A stretch of DNA of 58,114 nucleotides from Gekko japonicus (lineage: Eukaryota), in NCBI RefSeq assembly GCF_001447785.1, contig NW_015169198.1:359130-417243 (forward strand), read 5' to 3'. Positions 5,560 through 56,221 of this stretch are shown here, piece by piece. The position numbers were made by a program, and so were the translations under genes. The notes below the pieces were generated by a model. That model was not told where the DNA came from, searched no databases, and saw nothing but the letters and a program-made list of their open reading frames with translations. Positions within the stretch are counted from its first letter, which is position 1. Every line of letters begins with the position of its first letter.

Positions 5560-8365
5560 TTATACCGATTTTTCTTCCAACCATTTGTAAACTCTTTACC
5601 ATCGTTTTTGGAACATCTTTTCATCTTTTCATTGAATCAACATATTTAATTTGTCCATCTCTGCAATATCTAATGGTTTCTGTGCAATTTCATCTCTTGA
5701 GGGTAATTTTTCAGATTTCCAATACTTAACTATTAATATTCTAGCCAAAGTTAGAATATATGTCAACAAATATACCACATTTTGCTCAAAACAGTCAGGG
5801 ATTATATTCAGTAAATAAAATTCAGGTAATAGTTTTAAGTTAACATTCAGTATTTCTAAAGTTATCCTGTTAATATTTAACCAGAACTTATGTATCATCC
5901 CACATCTCCACCACATGTGAATAAAAGTTCCTATATTAGCTTTACATTTCCAACAGTTTCTAGAGGCTGAAGCAGGACACTTAGCAATTCTATCTGGTGA
6001 CCAATACCATCTATGGAACATTTTATAGATGCTTTCTTTAAATGAGGTTGCTCTTAGAAATTTCATTATTTTTCATATTCTGGACCATTCATCTATATTT
6101 ATGTTGTGTCCAATATCTTGCATCCAAGCAATCATTGAGGGTTTGACTATTTTGTACTGAATAAAGTCTTCTAATTAAAAAATTATATAGTTTTTCTATC
6201 ATTTTATCACTGGTTGAGAGCCAAATTTTATCCAATTCATTTTTAGTCTCGTAGAAGCCGATTGTATTATCTTTACTAAATCTTGATTGCAATTGTATAT
6301 TTTCCCACTAAGTCAAGTTTATATTCTTCAATCGTAAGATCTCTGGGGTTTTTAGTCTATTGGTTTTGTCTAATAATATATCATAAGTTTCTCTCTTTTT
6401 CAGTCATAAGCGGTTTTATGAATGCTTCTAATGGAGAAACCCACTTTGGGATTTTTGTGTAATATTTTTTTTTAATTCTGCTTCAAATTTTTATCAAGAC
6501 TCCCCTTACAATATGTTGATGAAAATTTGAATGTATTTTATCTTTACCATACCAAACATAGGCATGCCAGCCCATGCTCACGTCATGACCTTCTAGTTTC
6601 AAGATTCTCAATTTTCCAGAGTTATCCAATCTAATCCATCCTAAAGATGCTGCTTGGTAATACAGTTTCCAATTAGGTAGCCCAAATCCACCTCTTTTGT
6701 TTTTATCTTGTAATACTTTCCATTTAATCCGTGCTTTTTTAGGGTACCAAATAAATTGTCGAATAATTCTATCCAGGTCAGGAAAATATTGAGTTCTCTT
6801 CAGGATTGGTATGTTTTGGGCAAAGAATAAAAAAGTGGAAGTATATTCATTTTGATAGTTGCTATTCTGCCCAATAGTGATAATTGTAAGTCTTTCCATT
6901 TAAGAAGGTCTTTTCTGATTTCATCTAATAGCTTTTGGTAATTATTTTCTGTTAATGCACTATTTCTATTTGTCATTACTATGCCCAAATATTTAATTTT
7001 GTTCATGATTTCTATTTTTGTTTTATCTTGGATCTCCCTTATTGTTTCTTGTGTACAATTTTTGTTAGTATTTTGGGTTTTTTAATGTTTATTTTGAGGC
7101 AAGCTACTGTTCCATAATTTATTTATTTATTTTATTTATTATTTCGACTTCTATACCGCTCAGACCTGAAGGTCTCAGAGCGGTTTACAATCGTGTTGCA
7201 AGTGCAAATGCTCCTAATTCTATGGCCACATTGTTTCAGGGGTGGGGGTTTCCTACCAGCACCCGGGTGGGTTCGCTGCTTGCTGCTCGCGGCTCTCCAG
7301 CAGTTCACTCGGCCAGTGTATATCTGCAGTTGGTTTCTTCCCCTGGCGTAGATCTTCCGGCGCACGGCCCACAGCAGTCCCGGCTCAGCTCTGCACATAT
7401 TTGGCTCCGCTGTGCCTGCGCCGCTTGTGCTGCCGTGCGCTTTGCCGACGCCGTCGCTCCACTTCTCCGTCATCGGACGCCGGGCACTGGGTGCTGTTAT
7501 ACTCATCAGCCACCAGGGATCACCGCATCGTGTTGTCGCGCTTGCTGTTCCGCCCTCGCCATCACTGCTGCCGCCGCCGCCATTGCTAGTATTCGTCTGC
7601 CGCTGGTATTCGTCTGCCACTGTCATCGCCGAACTCCACCACATCCCCACACGGAGGAGGGTGCCCCCTACCCTTCTAAGGGTAGGTACCCATTTATCTA
7701 CTTGTACTCTTACTTTCGAACCGCTGGGTGGGCGGGAGCTAGGACTGAGGGCCGGGAGCTCACCCCGGCCGCGGTGGGTCTCGAACAGCCACTAGGGTTG
7801 TTCTTGATGTTACATGCAAGCGTTGTTATTGCTTGCGCCACCACTCCCTTGTATTACATCCAAGAGATGGGTGATAGATGTTAACGGTTCTTCTATTATG
7901 AAGACTAGATCGTCTGCGAAAGCTTGTAATTTAAATTCTTCACCTCTTATTTTCAGACCTCTTATGTAATCGCTGTTTCTCACTAAATCATATAAGGATT
8001 CTAATGGAAAAATAAATAGTAACAGTGATAAAGGACATCCTTGCCTTGTTCCTTTCTGAATCTCAATGTTTTGTGTCATGTCACCGTTAACCATAATTTT
8101 AGCATATTGTTTTTTATATATCGCTGTAATCATTGACAAAAAATGGGCCCACAGTCCCATACATCAAGCTTTTGTCTCAGAAATTCCCATGTTACATTGT
8201 CAAATGCTTTTTCTGCATCTAAAAAAATTAAAGCCAATTGTTTCTCCGGGTGAGTGTCATAGTATTCTAGGACATTAATGATGGTTCTTATATTATTTTT
8301 CAATTGTGTTTTCGGGAGAAATCCAGCCTGGTCTTGATGAATAATTTGGGACAATACTTTTTTTT
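5560..8365 (-). pseudogene. L1 ORF2 remnant (RT and C-terminal Cys-rich region, endonuclease missing)
   Basis: IIHQDQAGFLP, LDAEKAFD, KGTRQGCPLS, QAFADDL, KYLGI, GGFGLPNW, CWKC...HMWWRC motifs spread over several frames. Confidence 0.9.
7118..7848 (-). mobile_element. Composite SINE copy 1 (Sauria-like tRNA head, CpG-rich body, L2-type tail), inserted in L1 ORF2
   Basis: Head GGGAGTGGTGGCGCA...GTTCGAGACCC...GGTGAGCTCCCG...GTTCGAAAG...AGTAGATAAATGGGTACC. Tail TGTAAACCGCTCTGAGACC...GAGCGGTATAG then (TAAA)-like repeats. Confidence 0.85.
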
Positions 8366-8379
8366 GCCCCCCCCAATGG

Positions 8380-8922
8380 CTTCTATTTCCGCTGAGATCT
8401 CTTCATTAGTTCCAATTTTAAGTTGTTCCACTAAATTCTGGGTTATTTCTTCTTTCAGGTTTTTATCTATATCTTCTGTTATATTTTGACATCTTAAAAT
8501 AAGCCCAGCTTTATCCATTTCCAGGTTAATCAGGGATTCTTCCATTTTATCACTTTTTCTTTTTAATTCTTGTATTTCCTGGTTTAAATCATGAACTTTT
8601 CCTTCTAGTTTGTTTGTGGTTTTTGTAATTTTTGATATTTCTGTTTTATTTTCAGTTATCTGCTTTTTGATTTCTTCCATCTCAGTCTTAATCAGATTTG
8701 ATATTTCTTCCATTTTTACCTGAATGGGTTCTATTTCTTTTTTAACGCTGGTAGAGTAGATTCTGTTGCAAGTTGAATTGCTTGGATTACACTCTCTTGA
8801 ATAAGAGTTTTCAACTCTTACATCGTCATCTGAGCAACACTCATTTTTAATTGAATTGGTACCCCTGTTTGCCCTGGCGATGGTATGGAACCTTTCCTGC
8901 TTCCACCACTCCCTGATGCCAT
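8380..8922 (-). pseudogene. L1 ORF1 N-terminal/coiled-coil remnant
   Basis: MASGSGGSRKGS... then coiled coil MEEISNLIKTEMEEIKKQ...LRCQNITED. One stop and one frameshift. Truncated at a G/A-run junction. Confidence 0.8.
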
Positions 8923-11559
8923 GTATTTTATTTTATTTTCTATAGTATAATCTCTTATTGTTGGAATATCCTTGTTTTTACTGGCTGTTTTCTCTAAGGC
9001 AGTTTATTTTCAAGTTGTATCACAACCTTTATAATTTTCCCTTCTTTTATATTATTCTATAAATATTTTTCTCTTAACACAATTACAAAAACTGTAAATG
9101 TATTTTTAATTCTATATACTTTCTTTACTTTCTTTATGGTGTCATTTCTACTAGTTCATTTCTCTTCCTTTCTCTTTCTTGTGTTTTGTAGTCTTCTGTA
9201 TTATTTCCGACTAGTCACTCTCAGTTCATGTCTCTTTAAGTGTCTCATCTTCTCCTTTTTCCCTGTCGCGCTGTGATGAGTCAGAGTTTGCTCTCTCTGT
9301 GCTGATCCACATCACCTCCAGCCCATTCCCTCCTCGTCACTGCATCTCCGCCTCGCTCCTTGCTCTAAAACCACTTTGTCACCACTGCAACACTGGGATC
9401 TCAGTTAAAGAGACAGAAGACAGGAAAGAACAAAAAGAAATTATGTAGTAACTATTATCTAAATCCAGTAAGCTTCTACACATCCTAACTTAATCTCCGA
9501 AATGGTAGGGTTTATCTGAGCTTTCTTTACTTAACTGCTCTCGCAAACTCGCCTGCTCTTGAAACTAACTGGGATGTTCCTTCCCCCCCCCTCTGAGCTC
9601 TCCGCTTTTTTCTAATGTTTTTTGCTTCCCATTTCTCCCCCCCCCCCCGGAGATGAAACTAAATAAAAATACTTAGCTTCATTTGTTGTGTCTTTGTTCT
9701 TTTGAGTTCTGGTGTTAGACTCCGTTGGTTCTGATGGATTCTTCTGACGCTCGGGTGGACGAAGTCTCATCTCGTCCAGTTCCTAGTAACTTCCCACTAT
9801 TGGAACAAACCTGGAAAGTTTGGGGGGACTGCCACCCTCCCCTACTTCTGTTAAAATTTCCTTGCAAAGTCTCTCTCTATGGGAGACTACGTTTGACTAG
9901 TGTATTGGTCAGAGAAAGTTGTAGGAAAAGCTAAGATGTGCAGAGAAACCTCCACTCGCGCCCGCTCTTTTTAAGCCCGGAACCTCCATTTATTGTCCCA
10001 TAGTTTTAATTTAACATGAAAATTGGTCAAATTGATATTGTTGTGACATTATATGCCATAAATCTCTAACTGGAGAAACTGCAGGAGGACAGGATCTATT
10101 TTAACATTAATAGACCCTAACACATTCCATTTAAAAAGTGTCACTAAATCGGTTGTCTCAGTAGTCTGTAGTGACACTAAAGGCTGTTGATTAGTTTGAA
10201 TTGGCAATGTCTTTGTGCATGCAGTTTTGCAAAACCTCAATGCCTGTTCAGCAGAACAGAGCAAGATAGGTGATTGGCTCATGTCTTATCAACATGTTCA
10301 AATGTGGCAAGTTCAATCGCCAAATGCATTTGTGACAAAATTTGCATCATCCCTGGAAGAAATGACAGAGAGGGACAAGTTGTCACCTTATACCACTCCT
10401 AGAAGAATCCTTGCAATAAATGTAGATCATGGGACTTGCCTGCAAACTATCTAACTTTAAGAAAAAATTAGTGGCTGCAGTTAGAAGTGCTAACCCTAAC
10501 CCTAACTGTATCTGATCCTGCAACATAGATGGCATAGTAAAAAAGAAGTCATGGATTGTTAACAAAACAACAGCAGATCCCCAATGACTGGAAGAAGCTA
10601 GCTCCTAGCAACACCAGCGGTAGAATGCCATGCATCACAATAACTAGGACAAATCTTCACAGCTCAGGTTCTCTGAATTGCAGTTTTTGCCACACCAACC
10701 AATGTAGTTGAATTAGTGCTCTCTTTCTGTTCAGTTAAAGAACTCCCTCTTAGTCTCATCCAACTGCCATGCTAAAGAGTAGATATATTTTTTCCTGCTA
10801 TAGTTCAAAGACAACTGCACATCCTTAATGGTGCATCATAATGCACACAGCAGTAGAAACATATCACTTTTGGTGCCTGCCAAGAGAGCAGCTGATGACA
10901 ACAGGAGGCCAGAACCTCACTAAGGCATGTGTGTGCTGCGGCATGCCCATTGTTGTTGGCCAGGGCCAATAGTTCAAGTACTACTCATAATGTATTGAGG
11001 CATAATGAGAGATGGCAGAGGGAAAAGCTGGGTCTTTGCAGTACCTTCATCTGTTGCTTCGGCTTCCAGATGCCTGCTGCTAGCACAACACACAGAGCTC
11101 AAGGAGCACAGAGTACAGTTCATATCTTGCTTCAAGCGAGTGTCCTGATCAACCCTCCTGTGATCTCTTTATTCCACTTTGCTTTTTTGTACACGGCATA
11201 CCACAGGGGCTATTCAGAAACCTTTTAAACCAGGACATTTTAATCTGTTCTCTTCATCCCCAAGAAGTCTTGAGCCTCAGGATCTGAAAACACAAGCTTA
11301 CACAGTGAGGGAAATGACACCGAGGAAGTAGAAAGAAGTTCATCTTTGGACACAGTGTGATGGAAATAATTAGTTGCTATGGAACAGGCTGTTTTGTTCC
11401 ATTGCCATCAATAAGATGAAGTGTTGGATTCTTTTTACAAGAGTTGATTTGGAGAATGTTATTAATTTTTAGTGCCTCTACATCTGTCCTAAGACAACGG
11501 GAGCCCTTGAAAGATATTTTGTTGGGGGGGGAACCATTGCTCAAAGTATGCCCTGTTCA

Positions 11560-11777
11560 TAAGGTTGCCAGGCTCCAGATGAGGCCTGGAGATCCCCCAG
11601 AATTACAAGTGATTTCCAGACAACAGATATCAGTTCCCCTGGATAAAATGACTGCTTTGGAGGGTGGAGTCTATGGTATCATATCCCTCTGAGGTCCCTC
11701 CCCTCCTCAAACCCCATCCTCCCCAGGTTCCACCGCCAAATCTCAAGGAATTTTCCAACCTGGAGTTGGCAATCCTG
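11560..11777. mobile_element. hAT-type MITE (TAGGGTTGCCA family)
   Basis: Degenerate TIRs TAAGGTTGCCA / TGGCAATCCTG. TSD CCTGTTCA/TCTGTTTA (6 of 8 match). Confidence 0.75.
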
Positions 11778-13190
11778 TCTGTTTATGAGCCAAGGAAAGT
11801 GGTAGCTCTTGGAGAAAACAAAAAGATAGTAGCTGTTTAGTGTGGAATGGTAGAAGGAGCAGAGGCATTGCCGGTCATTCTACATGGATTAACAACCGGA
11901 CTAACAGATATAGGTTTCGATCCATAGCAGCATTTCTCTTCAGGACAGGCAACATATGATTTTCTTTCTCCCTTTATTTTGCTCTTAAACTCCCTATCCG
12001 CACCTCAGTTAGGCATTAATGTTACAAGGACTCTGTTACAATACTGGTATGTTGTTTTATGCATTTTGCTTTCCTTTGCATCTTATTTTCTCTCTTTGTA
12101 TCTTGATAGGGTAATAAAGATTTTCTGATTTGAGATTATTTCTCTCTGCCTCATGTTTCTAAATATATTGTGCCAGAAAGGCATTGTGTATACAATAGAA
12201 TGGTACTGTCCCCAAATAATTACCCCTGAATACTGTAGGGTTTTACACATGCAGAGTATACTGTGCACGTGACAGGCCTGACATGGAGACCAATTTGGGT
12301 AAGAGCACATGCACACAAACAAATAAGAAATTATAGTATCAAATAAGAATGCTTGTGTATTGTAATACACTAGGAATTGTATGGTGATGGTGAAACCTCT
12401 GGTGGTGATTGTCTAAGCTGATCCACTATCATAGATACGTAGTGAAGACAGAACAGGCTTGGCTGCCATTAGCTGAGCTACTTACAACCTAACTAGCTAT
12501 GATATTGGGACATCCATGAGCATATTGTCCCAGCAATCTGCAAGGTGAACACCAATGGAATTCAGTTAAGATGAAAGCAGAGGATGTTTAGTCTTTCTCT
12601 ACTCACATGTTTTAACAAATAAAAAACCCTGTGCTTGTATTACCCCTGAGTGAGAAAAAAACGACAGGCAAAGACCGGAACAATATAGTCTTCCCTTGGG
12701 AATGAAGAACTGGAAGCCTTAGAAAGGAGTAGGATGGTATCTAGAATGGATCCAGATACTGCAGCTGCTTTCAAAGCATATGATGGTTAGAGTGGAGGTA
12801 TAGGGACATGGGTACAAATCCCTGCTTGCTAGTCATGAGCCAGTCATTTTCTTTTACTCTTACCTATCTCTCTTACCCTTACCTGTGACAGAAAATTGAA
12901 GAAATAAAATGGAGAAAGAATATTACCCTTTTTTTTTGGAGGGTGGGTGGGATAATAATACACTAAAAGCATATATAAACTGTGACCTCTTTTCTTGGAG
13001 GAACTTAGAGCACTACTTTTAAGTTATAAAAGCTCACTTAGCTTGAGATGGAATGAGGCTAAGAAACAGGACAATGATGAGCTTCATGACTGTACAGAGA
13101 TCTGAATCTGGCACCCGTACATATCCATATGCAATACATACCCAGACTGTTTTGCAGCACTAGCCATGGTAAACCAGCATTATTATATTA

Positions 13191-13560
13191 CTAGGAAGAA
13201 GGCCCGTTGTGGAAATGGAGACAAGGAGCTCTAGAAACAGGCTATGGGCAAGTGGCCCTGGCTTGAGGAGTCTTTTTAGCATCAGTTTGCCAGGCGTGCC
13301 CCGAGGCCGGCCTGGGAGGAGATTCATGTTGCCCGCAGAGGAGCTTTGGTGGCATCCTGCTCATGTTCCTCCCCCCTGGAAGCGGCGCTATGCAAAGCAG
13401 GAGTGTGGGTGGCCGAGGAAAGGGAAGCAGTAGCCGGGACGGGGACAAGAGCTCTGTGCGGGCGCTGCTCCGTGCAAGGTGTGTATGTGGCTGCGAGACT
13501 GTGCTCCAGCAGTGGGTGAGGGACAGGCAGGTCATCTGGGTGACAAAAGGGGCCTCCCGG
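13191..13560 (-). mobile_element. Non-autonomous Helitron-like fragment (3' terminus)
   Basis: On the minus strand, a subterminal imperfect hairpin (GCCCGTTGT...ACAAGGAGC on +) followed by CTAG|T. GC-rich body. Confidence 0.55.
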
Positions 13561-13727
13561 CTGTCCTTGAAAAAGAGCAGTTTTTGTCAAGAGCTCTCTC
13601 AGCCCCACCTACCTCACGAGGTGTTTGTTGTGGGGAGGGGAAGGGAAAGGAGTTTGTAAGCCACTCTGAGACACCTTTGGGTAGTGAAGGGCGGGGTATA
13701 AATCCAATCTCTTCTTCTTCTTCTTCA
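13560..13727 (+). mobile_element. Squam3-like SINE, 3' half
   Basis: CTGTCCTTGAAAAAGAGCAG...GGGCGGGGTATAAATCCAATC(TCT)n. Confidence 0.85.
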
Positions 13728-16490: not shown

Positions 16491-17381
16491 ATCCTCCCCT
16501 CCCCCTAGGTCAAGGGACTTGCATTTACTACTAGCAGCATCAGTTGCATGGCTGCATTGGGGACGGGAGTGAAGTCTCTCCTTTCTCTTCTGTAATTGCA
16601 CTGCCTAGGTTTTGGGCCTAGTTTTGGAAGTCTCTGTCATTTGATCTAAATCCAGGTGTTTGTGTAAGAAATATATGACTCTCTGGCTAGTGATCCAGCT
16701 TGCTATAAACAATTCTGTCCCTGGTCAGAAAATTTTCTACGGTTCCAAAATTACATTCTTGCTAACATTCTCAGTTCTGTGATGAAAGAATCTAATTCTT
16801 CTTCTCACTGGGGTGTTATAAATAAGTTATAAACAACCCATTGTCACTGTAATTTAGGTTTCAGTGATGCTGAAAAGTTGAACTAGTACTGCGTTTCAGC
16901 TTATTGCCTAGCACTCTCCACCAGGTAGATGACAAGCCGCTTGCCACTAGGGACCCCACAAGCCAGCCGCTTTCACCCTAATACCTCTCCCAAAGAGGTG
17001 AGAAAAGATGACACATGTACCTCAGATTCTCAGCAGGGAGGAAGAGCTGTACCTCTGAGCAGCTTCCTAGCTGTGGTAGCTGATGCAGGGCTGGGTGGCT
17101 AACAGACCAGCCAGGAGCAGTGAGTCACCTGGTGGTCGCCTGGACAATGACCACCCCTCAGTGCTGGCTGGAGCTCTTGCTGAACACGTTCTCCCTATTA
17201 CCCAAGCAACGGTGCTCTTGCAGGTCCTTAAGACTTTGTGAGACTGGTCAATAGGATGGGGGAGCAGTGCCTGAGAGGAGGTTGTAATGCATATTGATGA
17301 CATCCCCCCCCCATGTTCTTCCTGTCACTAATTCTAGCAGTGGCAGGGGGATGAGAGGGGGTGGTAGAGGAAAGTGTCCAC

Positions 17382-17587
17382 CAATGTTCCCTCTAAGCTG
17401 TGGAGTCTTGTGAGCAAAAATTTTACTTTGTGAGCGACTGGCATTAAAATTGTGAGCGAGCGATTCGGCTACTGCATAAATCAGTTGGTTCTGGAGCTAT
17501 CTTTCCTGAGCTAAGACAGAAATGTGTGAGCTGGAGGCTAAAAAATTGTGAGCTAGCTCACACTAACTCAGCTTAGAGGGAACACTG
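17382..17587. mobile_element. hAT MITE (TIR CA(A/G)TGTTCCCTCTAAGCTG), copy A
   Basis: 19-bp TIR. Perfect 8-bp TSD GTGTCCAC. Confidence 0.92.
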
Positions 17588-17628
17588 GTGTCCACCATAG
17601 AAAGCAAATTGGCAACCCTAGTTGTAGC

Positions 17629-17834
17629 CAATGTTCCCTCTAAGCTGTGGAGTCTTGTGAGCAAAAATTCTACTTTGTGAGCTGCTGGCATTAAAGTTGC
17701 AAGCAAGCGATTTGGCTACTACATAAATTAGTTTGTTCTGGAGCCCTCCTTCCTGAGCTAAGACCAAAATTTGTGAGCTGGAGGCTAAAAAACTGTGAGC
17801 TGGCTCACACTAACTCAGCTTAGAGGGACCACTG
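17629..17834. mobile_element. hAT MITE, same family, copy B
   Basis: Same TIR. Perfect 8-bp TSD GTTGTAGC. A further partial copy lies at 29259-29322. Confidence 0.92.
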
Positions 17835-18179
17835 GTTGTAGCCTAGCTTGAGTTTATGTTGAAAATACCCCAAGGTTAGGAATGTTGTGGCACTATCACT
17901 ACTTGGACCTAGGAGTGAGTTGGGAGTTCCATATGGTTTTATATTTTCTATACATTTATGACAGTAAAGGATAAATCTAACATCCTGACGATTGATTTCA
18001 AAGTTTTCCATGATAGGCTGCTTCTTGTGAAAACCTCTCCAGTGACTTTTAGAGAAGAACCATTGCTACCATGTTTCAATATGATAAAGTAGTTGCAGAC
18101 TTCAGATTAGTGGAAAGATCATTTATTATGTTCTACAGGTGTCCTTTTGCACTTCTGTCTGTGGCATACTGTAGGTAGG

Positions 18180-18423
18180 AAGTTGGTTAGAGTGGGGTGG
18201 TTAGAGTGGGGAAAATCTGGGAGACCCTGTTTTGAATCCCCACTCTGCCACGGAAGCTCGCTGGGTGACCTTGGGCCCGTCACACACTCTTAGCCTAACT
18301 TGTCCCTCAGGGTAGTTGTGAGGATAAAACAGAGGAGAAGAGAATGCTGTAAGTCATTTTGGGTCCCCACTGGGGAGAAAGTTAGGGTATAAATGAAGTA
18401 AATAAATAAATAAACAAATAAAT
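18180..18423 (+). mobile_element. Older Squam3-like SINE
   Basis: Decayed tRNA head, CTGGGTGACCTTGGGC core, (TAAA)n tail. Confidence 0.75.
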
Positions 18424-20472: not shown

Positions 20473-21130
20473 GTCCTAACATCTTTTTTTAAAAGATAGA
20501 ATTATTAAATGTGTAGAGGAACAAAGCTTGCTGTGTTGAGGAAAAATCAGCATGGTCTCTGAAAGAGCCAGTCCTGCCTCACCAACCTTTTGAAGTTCTA
20601 TGAGAGGGTTAACAAGCATCTAGATAAGAGTGATCTGTTAGATATTACACACTTGAACTACCAAAAAGCTTTGATAAGGTACTTGGCCAAAGACTCCTGT
20701 GTAAGCTTAGCAGTCATGGAATAAGAGGACCAGTCCTCTTGTGGAATAAAAATAGATTAAACAAAAGAAGGCAGAGAGAGGGAATAAGTGGACAGTTCTC
20801 ACAGTGGAAGAAAGTATGCAGTGGGGTCCCACAAGGCTCATTACTGGGGCCAGTGCTATTTAACCTATTCTGGAGCTGGGGTGAGCAGTGTAGTGGCCAA
20901 GTCTGCAGGTGACACAAAATTATTCAGGATGGTGAAAACCAAGGCAGAGTGTGGAGAATTAGTTAGTACATGGTGAAGATGTAGTGGATAGCTCAATGAA
21001 AGGGCAACAACATGGCAAATAAACATAAATGTATGTTAGTACAAGGTGAAGATGTAGTGGATAGCTCAATGAAAATATCATTTCAGGTAAATTCCATGCT
21101 GGGATTTATTAGGAAAGGGAATGAAAATAC

Positions 21131-21777
21131 ATTTATTTTTATTTTATTTATACCTTCGGCTTATATACCGCTCTGACCCCGAAGGGTCTCTGGGCAGTTT
21201 ACATAGTGGTTCTAAGTTAACCAACCAATTAACCTGACTAGGGCCACATTGTCTACAGGGTGGTGACTGCCTACCAGCACCCCGGGCTAGTTGTCATCCG
21301 GCTTCCTTCTGTGGCTTCAGATATTGGCATCCTGGTGCCTTTTCTGGAGTCGATCTTCCCCAAGCAGCTTCTTCCAGCAGGTCTTGTCTTGGTGCGTGGC
21401 TCTGTGTTGGCTGCAATTCCGGCTACTGTCCACAGGTGGCTCTGCTGCACTGCGCCGCACGTCATCACACTCTCCAAGGCTCCACTTTCTCCGGGCTCCG
21501 CCTCCGACATTGCTTTATTGGGTCGCCAGAAACTGCTCCGCCGCCATTGTTGCCGCCACCGAACCCTTTACCTCACAAGGAGGAGGGGTGCCCCCTGCCA
21601 CCTAGGGCAGGTACCCACTTTATCTACTTGCATTTATGATGCTTTCGAACCACTGGGTAGACGGGAGCTGGGACGTGGGCCAGGAGCTCACCCCAACCGG
21701 AGTGGGTTTCGAACAGCCATAATGGCTGTTCATTGATGTTACTTTGCAGGCGTTCTTACTGCCTGCCCCACCGCTCC
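21131..21777 (-). mobile_element. Composite SINE copy 2, inserted in CR1
   Basis: Same head and tail blocks as 7118-7848, with a divergent body. Confidence 0.85.
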
Positions 21778-22111
21778 GTATTGTAACAATTCTGTGTACG
21801 TCTATGGTTCAGCCTCCTTTGGAGTAGTTTGTAGAGTTCTATGAGGAAAGGCTAAGTATTCCATCTAGAATTTTTACAGTCTAGAAAAAAGATGGCTAAG
21901 TGAGAACATGACAGAGGTTTGTAAAATTAGACAAGGGGTGGAAAAAGTGGATAGAGACATCTTTTTGTCCCTCTCCCAGAGCACTGGAAACCAGGGGAAC
22001 CAAATGAAAATGGCATGCAATAGATTCAGGATGGAAAAATGAAGAATTTCTTTACTCAATGAGTAATTAAATTGTGGCATTCACTGTCAGTGGATTTAGC
22101 AATGACCATAA

Positions 22112-23047: not shown

Positions 23048-23320
23048 GTTTGGTGTAGTGGTTAAGTGCACGGACTCTAATCTGGGAGAAACAGGTTTGA
23101 TCCCCCACTCCTCCATTTGCACCTGCTGGATGACCTTGGGCAAGCCATAGTTCTGGCACAGCTGTATTTGAAAAAGAGCAGTTTCTGTCAAGAGCTCTCT
23201 CAGCCCCACCTACCTCACAGGGTGTCTGTTGTGGGGAGGGGAAGGGAAAGGAGTTTATAAGCTGCTCTGAGACTCCTTTGGGTAGTGAAGGGTGGGTACA
23301 AATCCAATCTCTTCTTCTTT
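23048..23320 (+). mobile_element. Squam3-like SINE
   Basis: A and B boxes, core and (TCT)n tail. Confidence 0.9.
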
Positions 23321-29930: not shown

Positions 29931-30874
29931 TGAGCTCTGAAAAGGAGCAGGAGCAGGAGACAGAGCTGCTAGAAGGGTGAGTGTTTTTTACTTGCTTTCA
30001 GCTGAGGGGATTTAGCTGAGGGTATTGTGTGCATTACAATCATCTTAGCCCATGGCAGGTTCTACTATACATTACAGCTGTTATGATTATTGAAAATCTT
30101 CTTTGATAATTGTGAGACGTCACCAGAGGATATGAACTATTGAGAGACAGTTTTTGTCCCACATCTTTGTTCAGAAGAAGATCTTCCTTCGAAATGGCAA
30201 GACATTCCGGAGATCACCGTCAATATATTTTTCTATGATTATGTATATTATTTTTACTTTTCTATGATTCTTTAAAGACATATATTAAGCGTCACTTTGC
30301 ACAGTTTTTCTTGTTCTCCGTATTATCTCATTACTGTGCCAATCAATTGTTATTATACCTGGGTTATGAGCTAACCACACAAACAGCCCGTCCCCATTTC
30401 TTATTTATTTCCTGTCTAGCATCAGCAACAGTTGCAGAGAGGTACTCCCAGCAATGTAGTTTGCATATGGAACCCAAATATTTTGTCATTTGGGCCTTGA
30501 GAAACTACATCTCCCAAGATTCAAGAGAATGGTGTTATTTCTTCCTAATGTTGCTGACATTGCTACGCTAAATCTGATAGGGTGGAAACCAGATAAAGTG
30601 GCCATACAGGATATAGGATCTATTTGGGGAAATTGAGTTGCTTGTGGGGTATTGAGAGATGCATTTGAACCTCATTGCAGGAGCATGATGCAGGTCTGGA
30701 CTAGGTTCTGAATAAACCAAATTATTTTCTTCTTTTTAGCAAAATAACCAAACTTTCCTGGGACCAATTCCAAGGTTACCAGCCGTGAAAATTCCAGGAG
30801 ATTTCCCGCATATTTGGGGACAGTGCTTGAGGAGGGTGGACTTTGGGGAAGGGAGGGAGCTCAGTGGGGATGTG

Positions 30875-31745
30875 GACTGGCTAAAACAGAGCCGACTGAG
30901 ACTAAATCCTTCTAAGATGGAGGTTCTGTGGCTGTGGTGGGGAGATTCCAGTTTGGGGTGCAAACTCCCAGCTCTTGATGGTTTGCCCTTGAGACCGGCA
31001 CCCACTGTCAGGAGTCTGGGTGTGATCCTGCATACCTCCTTAACAATGGAGACCAAGGTCCCTAATGTTGCCAGACTGGCATTTTTTCAACTGCGCCAGA
31101 TCAGGCAATTGGACCCCATCTGTCTCGCCCTGATCTAGCCGCTGTAATCCATGCAACAGTCACCTCCAGATTGGATGACTGTAACTTGCTCCATCCAGTG
31201 CTGCATGAACTGCATTGGCTCCCAGTGGAGTACTGGATCAGATTCAAGGTCTTGGTATTGACCTTTAAGGCCCTTAATGGTCAGGGCCCTACATACTTTT
31301 GGGACTACTTCTCCTAGTATACCCCCTAGAAGAACATTACACATGACAGACCAGAACTTATTGGTGGTCCCTAGGCTGAGAGATGTCCAGCTGTCCTTGA
31401 CCAGAGCCAGGGCAGTCTCTGTCCTGGCTCCAACCTGGTGGAACTCTCTGCTGAACAACATCCATGCCCTGTGGGATGTGTTATGGTTCCACAGGGTGTG
31501 CAAGGCAGAGAAGATCAGTTGAGGACAGCAACGGTCCCATCTTGGCACTCCCACCTCACTTCCCTTTCCCCATGACATAGCGGCACTGCTGGGGTTTTAG
31601 TGCCATCTTTAGCTAGAGATCGCAGTGTTTTTATTGTTTTATTTGGTTTTAATCTGTTTTACTTGATATTTTATGTGATCATGTACACCATCCTGAGCCT
31701 GGTTTCACCGGGTAGGGTGGTTGATAGATTCAATAAATAAATATT
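30875..31745 (+). mobile_element. L2-clade LINE 3' portion (preceded by a MITE fragment at 30771-30870)
   Basis: WLKQSRLRLNPSKMEVL, VRSLGVIL, AFFQLRQIRQL, LHWLPV and APTWWNSL motifs. AATAAAT tail. Confidence 0.88.
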
Positions 31746-32699: not shown

Positions 32700-33410
32700 A
32701 TTAATTAATTAATTATATTAAATTTTTATCCTGCTCTCCTTCGCAAGCGGGCACAGGGCAGTTCACAACAAGAATCCAGCAAGATGAATTAAAAAAAACA
32801 AACAGTTAACAATAATCTAGTTTAAAACCCCAGTAATATAATCAAAAAATGGCAAACCAAATTTACAGGCTTCCAGGGGATCCTATATGTGTACCTAGAT
32901 AGATCCAGTGCGTGGGCAGATGGGAGCCCCATAGAAGATGGAATAAAGCAGATGAGATAGGACAGGGGAGGCCATCAGAGCTGGACACCCATTGCCTCAA
33001 CCCAAGGCCTGGTGGAATAACTCTGTTTTGCAGGCCCTGAAGAATTGTAATAAGTCCTGCGGAGCCCTGATTTCATTTGGTAGAGCGTTCCACCAGGCTG
33101 AGGCCAGAGCCGAAAAAGCCCTGGCCCTGGTTGAGGATAAACAGATGTCTTTGGGGCCAGGGACAGGGTTGCCAGCTCTGGGTTGAAAAATACCTGGAGA
33201 ACTTAGGGGTGGATCCAGGAGAGGGCAGGTTTTGGGAAGGGGAGGGACTGCAGTATGGTACATTGCCATAGAGTCCACCCTTCAAATCAGCCATTTTCTC
33301 CAGGGGACCTGGTCGCTGTCAGCTGGAGACAAGTTGTAAAAGCCGGAGATATCCAGGCCCCACCTGGAGGTGGGCAACCCTAGCCAGGGACCACCAGAAG
33401 ATGCTGTTTA
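32700..33410 (-). mobile_element. L2 3' end fragment
   Basis: RARAFSALASAWWNALPNEIRA...KTELF frame and an L2-type tail. Confidence 0.82.
33164..33382. mobile_element. hAT MITE (AGGGTTGCC family) inside L2
   Basis: TIRs and perfect 8-bp TSD GCCAGGGA. Confidence 0.9.
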
Positions 33411-39244: not shown

Positions 39245-39520
39245 CTCTGCAGTGTAGCTGTTGAGTGTGTAGTCTCTAATTTGGGAGAACAGGGATTGAT
39301 TCCCTGCTCCTCCACGTGCAGCTGCTGGATGACCTTGGGCAAGCCATGGTTCTGACAGAGCTGTTCTTTAAAGAGCAGTTCGCAAAAGAGCTCTCTCAGC
39401 CCCACCTACTTTGCAGGGTGCCTGTTGTGGGGAGGGGGAGGGAAAGGAGTTTGTGGGACACTTTAAGGCTCTGAGGGAGGGGCAGGGTATACATCCTATC
39501 TCCTCCTTCCTTTCTCCGTC
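39245..39520 (+). mobile_element. Squam3-like SINE (decayed)
   Basis: Core GCTGCTGGATGACCTTGGGCAAGCCA...CTCTCTCAGCCCCACCTAC. Confidence 0.8.
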
Positions 39521-43571: not shown

Positions 43572-43780
43572 AAATTTTGTTAGTCTTTAAGGTGCTACTG
43601 GACTCTTGCTCTTCCCTTGCTAGAAATCCAGTCGAATCCGACTCTAGGGTTGCAGTGCTCATCTCTATTTCAAAGCCGAAGAGCCAGCGCTGTCCAAAGA
43701 CATTTCCGTAGTCTTGTGGCTGGCATGACTAAATACCTAGGCGCACGGCTACAGGTGGACTAACACAGCTACCCATCTTT
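43572..43780 (+). mobile_element. Penelope-like terminal fragment split by a Sauria SINE 3' fragment (43615-43748, minus)
   Basis: TTTTGTTAGTCTTTAAGGTGCTACTGGACTC...GACTAACACAGCTACCCATC flanks the reverse complement of AGTCATGCCAGCCAC...GCTCTTCGGC...GAGATGAGCAC...CCCTAGAGTCGG. Confidence 0.7.
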
Positions 43781-43990
43781 ATTTATTTAGGTATTTATGC
43801 TTTTCTCCCCAATGGGAACCCCAAAAAGGTTACAGCATGATTCTCCATTCTGTCCTTACACCAACAACCCTGTGAGATAGGTTAGGCCAAGAGTGTGTGA
43901 CTGGCCCAAGATCACTCAGCAAGATTCCAAGGCAGACTAGGGATTCAAAATTTTGTCCCTCAGATCCTCATCTAGCACACTAACCATTAC
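43780..43990 (-). mobile_element. Older Squam3-like SINE
   Basis: CAACAACCCTGTGAG.TAGGTTAGGC...TGACTGGCCCAAG.TCAC.CAGC core. Confidence 0.7.
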
Positions 43991-45845: not shown

Positions 45846-46262
45846 GAGCCAGTGTAGTGTAGTGGTGTATTATGGTGCTGGAGAAGACTCTTGAGAGTCC
45901 CTTGGACTGCAAGGAGATCAAATCAGTCAATCCTAAAATTAAGCAAGCTCCAGAGCATGATGGAAGACAGGAGGACCTGGCGTGATGTGGCCCATGGGGT
46001 CGCGAAGAGTCAGACTCGATTGTGCAACTGAACAACAACAACAAGCATAGTGGTCAAGAGTGGCAGACTCTAATCTGGAGAATTGGGTTTGATTCCCCAC
46101 TCCTCCTCCACATGAAGCCTGCTAGATGACCTTGGGCCAGTCACAGTTCTCTCAGAATATCAACTCCACCTACCTCACAAGGTGCCTGTTGTGGGGAGAG
46201 GAAGGGAAGAAGATTGTAAGACACTTTGAGACTCCTTAAGGTAGAGAAAAACAGGGTGTGTT
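45846..46262 (+). mobile_element. Squam3-like SINE interrupted by a short BovB
   Basis: GAGCCAGTGTAGTGTAGTGGT|insert|GCATAGTGGTCAAGAGTGGCAGACTCTAATCTGG... Confidence 0.85.
45867..46044 (+). mobile_element. BovB (RTE) short internally deleted copy
   Basis: TGGTGCTGGAGAAGACTCTTGAGAGTCCCTTGGACTGCAAGGAGATC...GGGGTCGCGAAGAGTC...CTGAA(CAA)n. 10-bp TSD GTGTAGTGGT/GCATAGTGGT. Confidence 0.9.
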
Positions 46263-47405
46263 TAAAAAGAAAATCAATCAGTGAAAACAATGCAGTCCTC
46301 TGGTGTGCTCTCAGAAGGTTAGCAAAATGGTCTTGTCTAAGTTTTCAGCAAGCTGTTCAGTTACTGTTATAATTGGCTGATGAGTAGGTTTGGACCTAAC
46401 TAGAATGCCAGGGTTCGATTTCATGGTGTCCTCTGTGAAGATGTGTCACCATTTGTTCTAACTCTTTTTATTCTTCAAGGGTCAAGTGATAACCTAGAGA
46501 AGAAGACCCTTATTGAGAACAATCATATTTGATGCCAAAAGAAAATAGCAATCCCATTTCCTCTCACCACTGTAATTCACAGCTTTGTAATCTATTTTGT
46601 GATATTTCATGGTTTTCCAGAAATTACTGAAAATTTCTAAAATAAGTGATGCCACCTCAGTTGGCCTCTCTGCTTTAGTTCCCAACCTGCTGAAGGGCCT
46701 ATCTGATTCCACCTTGTGGCCCCAACAGATTTGTTGTAACAAGTCTTTGACTCAATTTGTTGTGATCCACCCTGAGCCCATTTGGGAAGGGTGGAATAAA
46801 AATCCCCCCCCAAAAAATAGTGACTGAATGCTTCTTTCCTATATTATGAAGCTGTTTCTTCTAAAATTACATTTTAGTTTGCCTTGTTTAGGTTTATGTC
46901 CTACAAGTGAAGAACACAGTATTCTTCTCAAGGTCATGCTTCTGTAAATGCTGTTTGGAAAATTATTTGTAAATTTGAAAATTATTTGAAAATTCCGTCA
47001 AACACCAGTCAAATACTGTCACACAATTAAGGTGAGGTGTAATAAATTGGATATCCATATAAAATGCCCCTAATTCTGGAGTGATGGATGTTGTTGTAGA
47101 AGCATTGTCGACAGAAAGAACATTTTTATGGGTGACTGGATTTGGAAAACTGGTCTAAGGAGAATTGTTAAATTATCTTTTGATTTCACAGCTAGAAGAG
47201 TATCAGCTATCTGAGGAAGCAGGAAGCGAATGCAGCACTGAAGCCGCCCATGTATAGCTGCTACTCCCTTAACGTGGAATTTTTGTTTTCCTGTGGGACT
47301 ATCACTTTTTTGAAGCGTCTGCTTGCCTGAAGCATCTTATACAAAAGATTGTACTTTATTTGGAATTTGTCTTTTGTTGGATCCTAACCCTTTAAGAAAT
47401 TATAA

Positions 47406-47690
47406 GGAGGAGAGGAGGAGGAGATTGGATTTATACCCCACCCTTCACTACCCAAAGGTGTCTCAGAGCAGCTTACAAACTCCTTTCCCTGCCCCTCCTC
47501 ACAACAGACACCCTGTGAGGTAGGTGGGGCTGAGAGAACTCTTGACAGAAACTGCTCTTTTTCAAGGACAGCTGTGCCAGAGTTATGGCTTGCCCAAGGT
47601 CATCCAGCCACGTGCAAGTGGAGGAGTGGGGAATCAAACCCGGTTCTCCCAGATTAGAGTCAGCACACTTAACCACTACACCAAACTGGC
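47406..47690 (-). mobile_element. Squam3-like SINE
   Basis: Near-identical to 870-1144. Confidence 0.9.
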
Positions 47691-47889: not shown

Positions 47890-49490
47890 GGAAGGCCTTA
47901 GGCCTTATTTTGTCCCTGGTGCAAATCTATATAGTCTGGATGTAGACAAAGGCCACAGGTCTTTGTTGCTCCTACTGGATCTATCTGCAGCCTTTGATTC
48001 AGTAGATTATATGTTATCCTGATGAGGCATTTGAAACAGAAGTAGGTATCAGGGGATGTCCCATGAACTTGCTTAAATTGTTCTTCATGAATCAAACTCT
48101 GTTGGAGGCTACCTACCTTCAGTGTGGGAGCTGTCGTTATTCAACCTCTATGTAGAGCTTTTAGGAGAAATCATTTGTAGGTTTGGAATTGAATGCCATC
48201 AATATGCTGATGACACCCAACTCTATCTCTTTCTATCCAAATGCCTTCGTAATACTGTAAAGGTCTTGAGCCACTGCCTGAATGCTGCGGGTGAAGGGCT
48301 GAAAGTGACCAAACTGAAACTGAACTCAGACAAATTCAGGTAGGTAGCCCTGCTGGTCTGAAGCAGCAGAACAAAGTTAGAGTCCAGTGGCACCTTTAAG
48401 TAAACCAACATTTTATTAAATGCTTGCACATGAAAGCTTATATCTTGAATAAAATTTTGTTGGTCTTAAGGGTGCCACTAGACTCAAATTTTGTTCTGAA
48501 CTCAGACAAGATAGAAATAGTTCTGGATGGAAGGATGGAGATCTTCAAGGACATTTTGCTCCCCGCTTTTGATGCATTGCAGCTGACTCTTGCTGACTCT
48601 GTCAAGAGTCCCTGGATCCAGCATATCTTTTGTAGAAAGAAGTCAATACAGCTGCAAGAAAGTGCTTTCTACCAACTCAGTCTAGCCTGGACAACGACCA
48701 TCTACCTTCACATGGGTGATCTAGTGACTTGGATCCATGCCATAGTAACGTCATGACTAGACTGCTCTAATTCTCTCTCCATCTACGTTGTTCACCCCCT
48801 CAAAGTCATCTCGGAAACTTCCAGTTGGTACAGAACACTGCAGCTCAGTTACTATCAGAAGCTAGCTGGAACAAGGATATTACTCCCATCCTGCAGTCAC
48901 TCCATTGGCTGTCCGTCAATTACTAGGCTCAAGGTATTGACCACAATGTACAAAGCTCTTCAAGGCCTTCACCCCTCACATCTGCTCTACCTCAGCAGCT
49001 TTGTTTATCAGAATAGGGCTTCCTGTAGGTGCCACTCTGCAAATGGGTAAAATCCCCAACAGCCCATACATGTGTTTCTATGTTGTGGCCCCCACCTTAT
49101 GGAATGGCCTGTCTGATGAGGTCAGAAAGGATCCCACCCACCTGGCTTTCTGTAGATTATGCAAAATTGACTTATTCAAGAGGGCTTTTTTTACACAGGC
49201 AATTAGGTCTGTTACTATAACAAACTGTTTCTGAAAGATGCTTTGGTTAAGGTGTGGGGACAGGCTATACTACTGCAGTCTCTTGCTGTAAGTACGATCC
49301 TCCTATGTTGTGCTAATATGTAAGTATTGTCTCAGCTCTGTTTTCAAATTTCTGCTTGTTTTCAGATTGCTAAAAGGCAAACCTTATTGCTTTGTCTATT
49401 GGATTGTTGGTTGTATTTGGCTTACACTGTGTCATCTGCCTTGAGTGTCAATGAGAGAGGTGGATTATAAATAACATAAATAAAATAATG
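47890..49490 (+). mobile_element. L2 LINE RT to 3' end (decayed)
   Basis: LLDLSAAFD, LFNLYV, CHQYADDTQLYL, KLKLNSDK, LHWLSV and APTLWNGL motifs. (TAAA)n tail. Confidence 0.88.
48334..48495. mobile_element. Palindromic Penelope-like non-autonomous insertion in L2
   Basis: Arms CAGAACAAAGTTAGAGTCCAGTGGCACC / GGTGCCACTAGACTCAAATTTTGTTCTG. 14-bp duplication CTGAACTCAGACAA at 48320-48333 and 48496-48509. Confidence 0.78.
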
Positions 49491-51290
49491 TATGTATCAC
49501 ATTTCAATCCTGGTATTAAAGTCTTTGCCTGTGACTTTATGGATAAAAATGTTTTCAAATTCTAAGAAATTTAGCATTATTACAATGGCGAGAGAAATTC
49601 AACTTCCTTGCAGAAGCAGATTGCTCTTACCTGGGGCATGTAATGTGTTGCCCACCTCTTTCTGCTTTGCTTTCTCAGGTAGAAAAGAAATCAAGAATAA
49701 GCGCAAGAAAACATAAAGTTCTTTTAACAAATGAATGAGGAGATGCCTGCAAGTTTGATCTAAAAATAAGAAATAAACACTTCATGGTTTGTGTTTAACA
49801 ACCCATCTGAAAACAAGATCGCTCTGGAATCAAGATCAGGATGGGCAAGATGGTTTGTCAGTGTTTCATAATAAATTATTCACTGTCTGCCTAGCAACAA
49901 AGTTGTTATTAATGAACAAAGGAAATCTTTAAAATAGAAATTTCATCAGGTAATGGTGTTCTTTTAAAGAAGATACAGATCTAAAGCAGTGGCGAGACTG
50001 GCAGATGTCTACCAGGCCTAGCCTTTTGGGAACAAGAAGACTCTAAGAGATAAAAACCTTGACACAAAACTGAATAAATTAAGTCTACAAATACTTCTAT
50101 TTAGTTTGATGAGGTTGTTTGAGGGCAAAATACTGTTACAGACAAATAATATCTTTGTCATTTGCTCTTCAAAGAGAAAGGGTTTGTTGGACTATAAGTA
50201 CTACCTCATCACTATTTCTGTTTCAAATCCATGAGACCAATATTCTTCAGTATATATCATTTTATATACACATTGGGACTTATCAATTAACATCTAACAC
50301 AGTGCTGAAATGAGGGGTGAATTTTGCACACAAAATTTTGCCCCCCAGCAGGTTAAAAATACTTCTTTGGGTTGGGGAGAAGGAACATATCTCTGTTGTC
50401 AAGGCAACAAGACCAATACTTCCTGACTTACCATGAAGCCAATTGAGCCATTCCAAGGGAATGTCTTTAGTTTTTCCTTAAAGTCCAGCGTGCCTGTCTA
50501 GTTATTCTCCTTAATCCTTCCCCTTCCATATCTTCTACACCTCCATATCAGACTTAAGCTATCCTGCTCAGTCCTGTTTATCTTCTTCTCCTTCCTCTTC
50601 TGGGGTAAAAAATAACATGATAGAAGACTGATGAGCAAAACCCCAGAATTAGTGTGCTCCTTTGTGGTGATTTCTTTGTTTCTTCATCTCACCTTCTATC
50701 TTTGTCTTACAGCTTGCCTTCCATTATACCCGACTATAAAACTCTTTCTCATGAGACAGTAGGCTTATGCATCCGACCATATATTGAAATACCATTACAC
50801 TTCTCATGTTCAAAGTCTGTCGTAAGATGGCAAGAGTTTATCACTGGAGCCTTGACAAAAATGCCCACACTGCATCTTGGGTTTTCTCCCCATAATACCT
50901 GAGTCATCATGAATCAGCACAGTTGTAAACAGGTATTTCAAATATTTTCAGGGATATTTATGTTTGAATTATAGTTTTAACTGTCCATCATTAAACTAGG
51001 ATTTATCAGCTCTAGAGGCTTCTGCAATTTACAAGCAGAGACTTAACTATTTCTACTTTGCAGGGTGGTATCATGGCACAATGTCAGCACAGTAAGTTGC
51101 AGCACTGAAGAAACCCTGAGGATTGTGACAAATGTTGATATATTTCACTAACAACTTCATTCTGTCAGCTAATATTTCAGAATCCTAATTTTATAACTCC
51201 ATACATTTGGAATAATTCTGTACATTCAAAATCCCACTGGTTTCTATAGAAAGGAAATGAAATGAAAATGAAATGAAAATTAACCATATT

Positions 51291-51702
51291 TAGGGCTGCC
51301 AACTCTGGGTTATGAAATTCCTGGATATTTTGGGAGTAGAGCCTAGGAAGGACAAGATGTGGGGAGAGGAAGGATGGGTATAATGCCATAGAAGCCACCC
51401 TTGGAAACGGTAATTTTATCCAGGGGAACTATGGTTGCCAACCTCCTGGTGGTGACTGGAGATCTCCCACTATTACAACTGATCTCCAGGTGACAGAGAT
51501 CAGTTCACCAGGAGAAAATGGCCATTTTGGAAATTGGACTCTGTGGCATTATGCCCCAAACTGTGCCCTCCACAGGCTCCAGACTCTCCAGGTATTTCCC
51601 AACCCAGACCTGGCAACCCTAAGGAGAACTGATCTGTGTCATCTGAAGATCATTTGTAATTCTGAAAGATCACCAGGCCCTATGTGGAGGATGGCAACCC
51701 TA
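51291..51702. mobile_element. hAT MITE with a same-family MITE nested inside (51430-51621)
   Basis: Outer TSD ACCATATT/GCCATATC. Inner TSD AGGGGAAC/AGGAGAAC. The inner copy is inverted. Confidence 0.82.
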
Positions 51703-52630
51703 GCCATATCCCCTAGACAGTCGGCCACCAGAAGTGATAGGAGAAGGAAGCTGAGTGTTCCCTGACGGGTTTTGACCTAAATTTGCCAAGGAAAGGGTGA
51801 GTGAGGTGAGAGCAGAGCCTGTGATGATGTGTGTTTGCACTTATGGAATCCCAGACATGGACAACAGAGACCTCTTTCCCATTGGTCCTTTCCCATTGGA
51901 AGGTGGGCTTAGCTGTTTTATCATCTCGCTGCTATCACCTGTCCATCTGCTCTTAATTAATGCTATGCATGCTGAAACAGTCCCTTTCCATGTCCTTCAT
52001 CCTACATGTGATCCCCACTCTACCCCTCAGCTTCAAATCCAGATTTTGCATTTAGTACACAATGCTGTGCTGCAATATCCTGCTTCAGATAGTTGGAGCA
52101 GGGGAGGTCTTAACCAATGAACAACAGGAACAGCTGCCCTGGGCCCTGTGCTGGGCCCTTCTACTGGTCGCATCTGCCCTATCTGGGGCTGGAGAAGCTG
52201 GCTTCTGGCAGCAGAGGTAGCTCCCACACACTTCAAATGGGCCATTCTTTGTTCAGTCATTGGGGGGAGGTGATTTTGGGGCCCCATTCTGGACTTTTGC
52301 CCTGGGGTTCAGAATCACCAAAACCTCTCCTGAGTTGGAGAGGCTCATTTTGACATTTTTTTTACATTAAATCCTGACATTTCTTCTGCATGAACTTGTA
52401 CATTTCAGAAGTGCACACTGTGCCTTTAAGAAAAGTCTGCTGTAGCTGATCAAAGGTCTATCTTCTCCAGCATCCTGCTCCACAGATGCTCTTGGACAGC
52501 CTGCAAGCAGGGTATGGTGGACAAACCAGCACAAGTATGCATACTCTTCAGAGGTACGTTGTCTCTGAACATTTTGCCTTCTTGTCTAATTGATTGCCTT
52601 TATTTAATGTCGTTTTAGTTCTATCAAATG

Positions 52631-53696: not shown

Positions 53697-54072
53697 AAAT
53701 TCTACAAACCATTAGCACATAAAGCTACCATATTAATTATTTGTAGGAAGAACTTAATCATTTGGTTAACTTGTCTCTCAGAACATTAATTTTCCATATG
53801 ATAGCCATCTCTGATATCTAAATGTGCTCAGATCTATGAGTCCTCAGTTATTCCTGCCAAAACAATCCCACATGATGAACCAAAGGTCTCTCACCATGAC
53901 TGCATCCACACATCACTGTATACTGACTCTAGCAACCATTTGCAACTGGATTTTCTGGTGTGGACAAGACAATCCATTTATTAATAATGAGTACAATGAA
54001 GCAATAGTGCAATATCCAACACTGTATGGCTGCATCCAGTGTTTCATTTTATTCTTTAGGGAGCAGTCAATG

Positions 54073-54272
54073 TAGGGTTGCCAACTCTGGGCTGGGAAAT
54101 GCCTGGAGATTTTGGGGATGGTGCCTGGGGAGGGCAGAGTTTGGGGAGGGGAGGGACCTCAGCAGGGCATAATGCCATAGAGTCCAGCCTCCAAAGCAGC
54201 TATTTTCTCCCGGGGAACTGATCTTCATCATCTGGAGATCATTTGTAATAGCAAGAGACCTCCAGGTGCCTT
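54073..54272. mobile_element. hAT MITE (TAGGGTTGCCA family), one end lost
   Basis: Matches 33164-33382 along its length. Confidence 0.8.
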
Positions 54273-55529: not shown

Positions 55530-56221
55530 TTTAATATTTAATTTTAATTTAATATTCAATTTATATACCGCTCTGACCCTGAAGGGTCTCTGAGCAGTTT
55601 ACACACAATTTGATTCCTAACTAGGGCCACAATTATAGAGGGGAGTGATTGCCTACCAGGACCCGGCAGCAGGGCTTGTTGCTATCTGGCTCCCTCCGGT
55701 GGTCTCAGAAGTCAGCGTTCCACCTCCAATGTCCTGGAGCAGATCTCTTTCCAGTCCAGCGGCTTCCTCTGGTGGGTCCATGTCAGCCCGTGTCAGCTGC
55801 AGCTCCGAACAACGTCCTTCCGGCTCTGCCGCACCGTGCCGACACGCCACTGTACTTCAGTGGCTCCACCTTCACCTCCGCCGGATTCCTCCGCTCATGT
55901 TGCGCTCACAGGCCATTCTCCACTCTCACAGGCCACTCTCCACCACTCCATCGCTCTACTGCCGCTCCGCTGCCGCCACTCCATCGCCGTCATTGCCGGT
56001 GCCTCCGCTGCACACCCCACAAGGAGGAGGGTGCCCCCTGCCACCTAGGGGCAGGTACCCATTTATCTACTTGCTGAATATTAATGCTTTTGAACCGCTG
56101 GGTGGGCAGAAGCTGGGACTAGGGCCAGGAGCTCACCTCGGCCGCGGTGGATCTCGAACAGCCGTAGTGGCTGTTAATTGATGTTACGGCAGGCGTTCTT
56201 ACTGCCTGCGCCACCGCTCCC
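55530..56221 (-). mobile_element. Composite SINE copy 3
   Basis: Same head and tail blocks as copies 1 and 2. Confidence 0.85.

Follow-up and report, generated by a model that had tools for sequence, protein, structure and literature searches.

A candidate long composite SINE family in Gekko japonicus that combines a Sauria-type core with an L2-type tail around variable CpG-rich bodies

The window, i.e. the whole 58,114-nt stretch of Gekko japonicus DNA that was analysed (contig NW_015169198.1, positions 359,130 to 417,243), contains three elements on the minus strand, one of which interrupts a decayed L1 ORF2. An earlier reading of the letters had proposed that the three share one architecture of head, conserved block and tail, and pairwise alignments confirmed this (Table 1). 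The heads (~205 nt) are 83-88% identical (164/198, 172/198 and 176/201 aligned columns), the blocks 72-77% (56/75, 46/64 and 48/62) and the tails 85-95% (34/40, 36/40 and 40/42), and in all nine comparisons of head, block and tail the score was reached by 0/300 dinucleotide shuffles. The coordinates given in the sequence-only reading hold for copies 1 and 3; for copy 2 the start moves by one base, to 21778. Without the A-rich end the elements measure 615-697 nt. HMMs built from the three copies detected no fourth copy, solo head or truncated member in the window, and locally this amounts to 52 copies per Mb (95% range 11-153), a value from one window that was itself singled out. No ORF is common to the three copies, and the seven element frames among the 44 scanned (14 long frames external or internal to the elements set aside) gave no match in Pfam or in the protein set. 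At the block end (region of 7230-7219 and 21248-21237) copies 1 and 2 have an ATG-started mini-frame of three codons, which is probably incidental because copy 3 lacks the ATG. With three copies in the window and a high head depth in sequencing data (see below), the family is interspersed, multi-copy, shorter than 1 kb and non-coding. An exact pattern search for further copies gave none in metagenome contigs and none in viral contigs; a degenerate pattern led to 13 loci, of which six matched little beyond the pattern, six had no BLAST hit and a single one (L004) aligned further.

Table 1. Positions of the three copies, their parts and two related features in the window
Feature	Position	Strand	Remarks
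Copy 1	7118..7848	-	731 nt, full length; sits within L1 ORF2 reverse-transcriptase region
Copy 1, head	7647..7848	-	A box from 7840, B box from 7786
Copy 1, head parts		-	Sauria core 7764-7685, hairpin 7686-7667, family-specific segment 7668-7647
Copy 1, body	7268..7646	-	379 nt, GC 0.62, CpG o/e 1.01
Copy 1, 17-nt tandem duplication in body	7585-7622	-	
Copy 1, conserved block and spacer	7190..7267	-	
Copy 1, L2-type stem-loop and A-rich end	7118..7189	-	stem-loop 7189-7152
Copy 2	21131..21778	-	648 nt, full length
Copy 2, parts		-	head 21778-21573, body 21572-21286, block and spacer 21285-21204, tail from 21203
Copy 3	55530..56221	-	692 nt, full length; exact span absent at empty orthologous site, run X5
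Copy 3, head	56017..56221	-	A box from 56213, B box from 56159
Copy 3, head parts		-	Sauria core 56137-56054, hairpin 56055-56037, family-specific segment 56038-56017
Copy 3, body	55668..56016	-	349 nt, GC 0.62, low-copy at 80% likeness
Copy 3, 20-nt tandem duplication in body	55905-55943	-	
Copy 3, conserved block and spacer	55604..55667	-	
Copy 3, L2-type stem-loop and AT-rich end	55530..55603	-	stem-loop 55603-55564
Ordinary Sauria/Squam1-type 3' half	43615..43748	-	comparison; the part that the three copies lack
Decayed L1 ORF2 interrupted by copy 1	5563..8363	-	context

In each of the three copies an A-like box begins at element position 9, followed 54-56 nt on by a B-like box; against the tRNA consensus, the A box is about two positions off. 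ARAGORN predicted no tRNA and Rfam gave no match at gathering scores in the window, and Rfam E-value scans of the three copies led to sub-threshold matches only. The core downstream of the B box aligned with a Sauria-like SINE in L004 (45/54, 66/79 and 55/63) and, counted by hand, with the Podarcis Sauria head as printed in the supplement of PMC13295347 (~62/78), and in copies 2 and 3 the likeness to the L004 SINE takes in the following hairpin as well and reaches about position 184 of the element. The A and B boxes and a Sauria/Squam1 core, as expected for the proposed Sauria-type head, were therefore found, but the stretch between the two boxes differs from that of the Sauria head. The SINE used for comparison (L004:219-553) lies in a metagenome contig and has a tRNA-type head and the Sauria core, followed by a 3' half that resembles Sauria and by a tandem tail with a 6-nt unit; its head is unlike squamate heads, and the Sauria module may occur outside squamates. 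The fragment at 43615-43748, which had been taken for an ordinary Sauria-type piece, matches the 3' half of the L004 SINE (58/77, z=11) and, by eye, the Podarcis Sauria 3' end printed in the same supplement, and can be regarded as such. When the three copies themselves were compared with the Sauria 3' half, five of six comparisons were not significant and the sixth (copy 1 against L004) reached 7/300 with a gappy alignment; judged from these alignments, the Sauria 3' half is absent from all three.

The head folds into conserved hairpins, and copy 1 shows changes on both sides of a pair once in the first hairpin and once, by eye, in the hairpin after the core. Covariation over the head was not significant among these three sequences (1/27 pairs, 177/500 shuffles). 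None of the three cores contains a run of four T residues (T4), compared to its absence from 58/2188 windows of 660 nt and from 13/232 GC-rich windows; among random sequences, 32-41% lack T4 at equal GC and 59-73% at the copies' own composition. Taken alone, the missing T4 is weak evidence for transcription by Pol III. RNA reads fall on both strands about equally, with no start pile-up listed, and raw RNA reads number ~320 at the head end, ~200 at the tail, 0-3 in the body and 0 in the flanks. An HDV-like ribozyme was considered and rejected, as a loose descriptor gave no sense-strand match in any of the three copies; its four antisense matches in copy 2 stand beside matches in 3-12 of 30 shuffles.

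The last ~40 nt ahead of the A-rich end fold into a stem-loop. This tail matched the Squam3-like tails of the window in 9/9 comparisons and five L2-like tails in 10/15 (≤2/300 shuffles in both sets), in agreement with the Squam3/L2 type that had been suggested for it. Three of the five L2-like tails lie downstream of same-strand reverse-transcriptase (RT) fragments, which are presumably L2, judged by their motifs. Within the window the best L2-like tail match is 37/52, no L2 with an identical tail is present, and the best matches of the tail are the Squam3B-like copies. The ends are A/T-rich and have no (ACCTTT)n. Likely L2-type RT fragments were seen at 30794-31745 (+), 48137-49490 (+), 15050-14495 (-) and 16492-16286 (-), the first three of which end in a T-rich 3' region with a stem-loop tail. 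Further RT fragments are, by their motifs, presumably CR1-like at 20652-20870 (+) and 57501-58112 (+) and BovB-like at 52615-52901 (+), the last of which is followed by a CpG-rich stretch at ~53160-53700.

To the region 55200-56549 around copy 3, four public sequencing runs were compared at 80% likeness. In run X5 (organism C, a related species) a 785-nt contig of single-copy depth joins 55529 to 56222: it aligns from 55289-55529 and continues ungapped at 56222, with 692 nt skipped and one ambiguous letter. As the skipped stretch is the whole of copy 3, this copy arrived in one piece and without a target duplication, which could amount to ≤1 nt at the empty site. Run X1 (organism A), with 16/740 differences from the window, has the insertion: at the 3' junction one record reaches across by 54 letters, a second extends 28 letters into the head (under the 31-letter bar of the tool), and the record that covers the body shows 5 differences in 191. 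In run X13 (organism I) the locus is uncovered, and this run, with short matches to tail and flank only and none to the head, is uninformative on the insertion. Copy 1 splits the reading frame of the L1 ORF2, which resumes in register: exactly one residue lies between the insert-flanking positions in 92/105 L1 homologues, and three bases are left at the junctions of copy 1, indicating that here, too, no target was duplicated. No target site duplication (TSD) was found at copy 2, and near any end of the three copies there is no direct repeat longer than 6 nt and no repeat positioned like a TSD. From the empty site in X5 and the L1 register at copy 1, the composite element can be accepted as one insertion unit. 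The target duplication pattern is that of Squam3, in which TSDs are rare, and unlike that of the BovB-mobilised Sauria SINEs. A reading as LTR element or DNA transposon was dropped, given the A-rich 3' end and the lack of TSDs and terminal repeats. The reverse-transcriptase piece of the interrupted L1 has its best matches in snakes and monitor lizards, and a coiled-coil-like frame was noticed beside this ORF2 at 8300-8932.

The same empty site allows dating, for copy 3 only and via one contig of one relative. The flanks of copy 3 differ from organism C in 45/551 letters (8.2%), and copy 3 is younger than the species split that corresponds to this ~8% divergence; if rates are equal, it has changed by only about 4% at most since insertion. 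Its head is 12-13% different from those of the other copies and its body more than 30%, and the body is still CpG-rich. The best reading of these data is a real, recently mobile and lineage-restricted composite SINE family.

A single novel body, as the sequence-only reading had assumed, was not recovered. The bodies of copies 1, 2 and 3 comprise 379, 287 and 349 nt with GC 0.57-0.62, T 12-14% and CpG o/e 0.65-1.01, compared to 0.24 for the window. Bodies 2 and 3 are collinear over ~220 nt (z=10.7; 0/300) and thus distant relatives, body 1 is weakly similar to body 3 (z=4.2; 1/300), and bodies 1 and 2 are not significantly alike (z=1.3; 33/300 shuffles), so that the body of copy 1 barely aligns. 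All three contain short common motifs in the same order and resemble each other in length, strand bias and composition. They are purine-skewed, and an A/T skew as large as that of the least skewed body occurs in 28/87 GC-rich control windows. A derivation of the block from reshuffled Squam3 sequence was not significant. In the sequencing data, heads of other copies run on into many different G-rich bodies (loose ends), and the loose ends at 55615 in X1 and 55660 in X5 are, by eye, variants of the block. As copy 3 postdates the ~8% split and yet differs by more than 30% in a body that is still rich in CpG, the differences between bodies were likely inherited from many source elements and are not due to decay. 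For the specialist, such a hypervariable young body is more surprising than the switch of the tail.

Summed contig depths in X1, relative to the flank, were ~10,850x for the family-specific head segment, 11,760x for the core, 560-660x for the 5' head, 196-327x for the block, 4,990x for the tail and 8-63x for the body, a profile that the raw RNA reads repeat. These depths are not copy numbers, as overlapping contigs inflate and the 80% cut deflates them, and those of core and tail include cross-matches from other families (Squam3 and L2 for the tail). In organism C the same head segment reached ~210x and a block signal was present, with no depth over the body. Head, body and tail had been expected to be consistently linked: within the window 3/3 heads are linked to block and tail, but the block depth is 33- to 55-fold lower than that of the family-specific head segment, and many heads may lack a block. 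This is the main result against consistent linkage; it is not decisive, because the blocks are 72-77% alike and fall under the 80% cut.

We consider it probable that the three copies represent one non-coding family which inserts as a unit without target duplication, likely as a Pol III SINE that is likely copied by L2. Starting from the internal A and B boxes, Pol III would transcribe the complete element and read through 615-697 nt, which the absence of T4 from the three cores would facilitate, and the protein of an L2-clade LINE as putative partner would bind the 3' stem-loop and insert the copy without a duplication. The family may have originated by a recombination in which a Sauria-type head was retained together with its core, while the BovB-dependent 3' half was exchanged. 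Many source lineages, each with its own body, would then be active in parallel, with sequence constraint presumably acting on promoter, core, block and tail only. More tentatively, and as a possibility to which we give somewhat less than even weight, this would be a new SINE family of geckos that ranks with the longest known and numbers thousands to tens of thousands of copies. It would stem from parallel sources and have no single consensus, with promoter, Sauria core, block and L2 stem-loop under selection while a CpG-island-like middle of 300-400 nt evolves freely.

LINE 5' UTR promoters are often GC- and CpG-rich and purine-skewed, and the same applies to the bodies described here. The three copies might be internally deleted L2 LINEs: an L2 lineage of geckos would have captured a Sauria head, and its 5' UTR, made up of head, body and block, would be joined to its own 3' stem-loop. 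The bodies would then vary as LINE 5' UTRs turn over fast, and transcription could be by Pol II. Within the window, HMMs detected nothing like an autonomous L2 with a matching 5' part. Bipartite non-autonomous LINEs are indeed a known source of SINE middles, but in the accessible text of the same work ORF-less bipartite LINEs are made only by RTE, Ingi, Vingi and R2, and donors of SINE middles are only RTE and Vingi (PMC5786205). Moreover, 3/3 copies begin 8 nt ahead of the A box and lack T4, no ORF is common to them and their frames match nothing in Pfam or the protein set. We regard a deleted L2 as unlikely, and a Pack-like SINE as slightly less likely still. The latter would be a short vehicle of head, block and tail that captured GC-rich sequence of the host independently on several occasions. 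In its favour are bodies 1 and 2, which align no better than shuffles (33/300), the many different sequences behind the head in other copies and the very low body depth. Unrelated cargo is at odds with the collinearity of bodies 2 and 3 over ~220 nt (z=10.7) and the weaker relation of 1 and 3 (z=4.2), and with motifs in common order and a similar length, strand bias and composition in all three.

Simple decay of an old, ordinary SINE with one consensus, in which the CpG-rich body has changed fastest after insertion, is very improbable. Head differences of 12-17% are typical of older SINE copies, and there are more transitions than transversions, but copy 3 postdates the split with ~8% flank divergence, the bodies keep a CpG o/e of 0.65-1.01 against 0.24 in the window, and neutral decay cannot produce tails that are 85-95% identical together with nearly unalignable bodies in the same copies.

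The preferred reading, a unit-inserting SINE family, can be compared to the known squamate SINEs. With Sauria/Squam1, as described in the available parts of PMC13295347 and PMC10702118, the element shares a tRNA-type head, A and B boxes and a core of ~100 nt with the following hairpin. Sauria SINEs are 256-359 nt long in the query table of PMC13295347 and have a BovB-related 3' part, (ACCTTT)n and TSDs, whereas the element is 648-731 nt long, has a different A-to-B spacer and an L2-type stem-loop, and shows neither the Sauria 3' half nor a TSD. Table S3 of the same source lists Sauria BLAST matches for geckos that range from 26,375 in Gekko gecko and 4,735 in Mediodactylus to 0 in Paroedura and Heteronotia. 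Sauria matches in geckos are thus patchy, and some could be the core of the long SINE family and not true Sauria copies. Squam3, according to the available text of PMC7983390, has an L2-like 3' end and a very low TSD rate, is abundant in geckos and consists of 217-271 nt with a Ther1-type head and a CORE fragment. The L2-type 3' stem-loop, the absence or rarity of TSDs and the abundance are therefore common to both; unlike Squam3, the element is 648-731 nt long, and upstream of the tail it did not align with the Squam3-like copies of the window (18 comparisons, best 12/200). These copies comprise six Squam3B-like SINEs with CTT-type tails (868-1144, 13560-13726, 23048-23320, 39252-39513, 46048-46248 and 47404-47686) and two older Squam3A-like ones (18214-18410 and 43778-43950). 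The six, up to ~285 nt in length, fit by eye the subfamily Squam3B3, which is given as dominant in two Gekkonidae species (PMC7983390, available text).

Anolis SINE 2, listed in a table row of PMC3747384 as paired with Anolis LINE 2, is likewise a squamate SINE with A and B boxes and an L2 partner. From the descriptions available, the three Squam families, Squam2 among them, are ~190-350 nt long, half the length of the element. The SINEs with exchanged tails of Kojima 2018, including 5S-Sauria and SINE2-1_ACar, likewise exchange head, middle and LINE-derived tail as modules, but in the accessible part of that paper none with a Sauria core has an L2 tail or a body that is long and variable (PMC5786205). 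Among 175 catalogued families SINE lengths range over 75-662 nt (PMC3531059, as far as available), and with 615-697 nt without the A-rich end the element is at the top of this range, around its maximum of 662 nt. In its presumed mechanism it resembles Squam3, an L2-dependent tRNA SINE, and it shares a module with Sauria/Squam1, being a member of neither. A RepeatMasker/Dfam class label may exist for the combination of tRNA, Sauria core and L2 end; if so, the combination of head and tail already has a name. Within the literature searched, no paper used that term or described the element, which, as judged from these papers, is a candidate for an undescribed family.

Most SINE families have few master copies, one consensus and short middles, some of which are ultraconserved. 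The long gecko SINE has young copies with conserved ends and middles that are more than 30% different; if this is true genome-wide, the family would directly reveal the parts of a SINE RNA on which selection acts, and would turn the origin of SINE bodies into a testable question. In addition, it would clearly exemplify a Sauria core that passed between the machineries of BovB and L2 type, and would be a source of species-specific presence/absence markers. With each jump a CpG-rich patch, young and nearly unique, would enter a genome poor in CpG, and as consensus-based repeat masking would largely miss such bodies, gecko genomes could contain unmasked CpG-rich sequence of this origin.

Further repeats were seen in the window. 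A MITE-looking family of ~220 nt occurs in both orientations (11560-11779, 33162-33383, 51288-51703 and 54070-54266), a tandem pair of 247 nt that is 90% identical lies at 17381-17836, and at 56952-57319 a 183-nt sequence is exactly duplicated in tandem (100% identical), which may be an artefact of the assembly.
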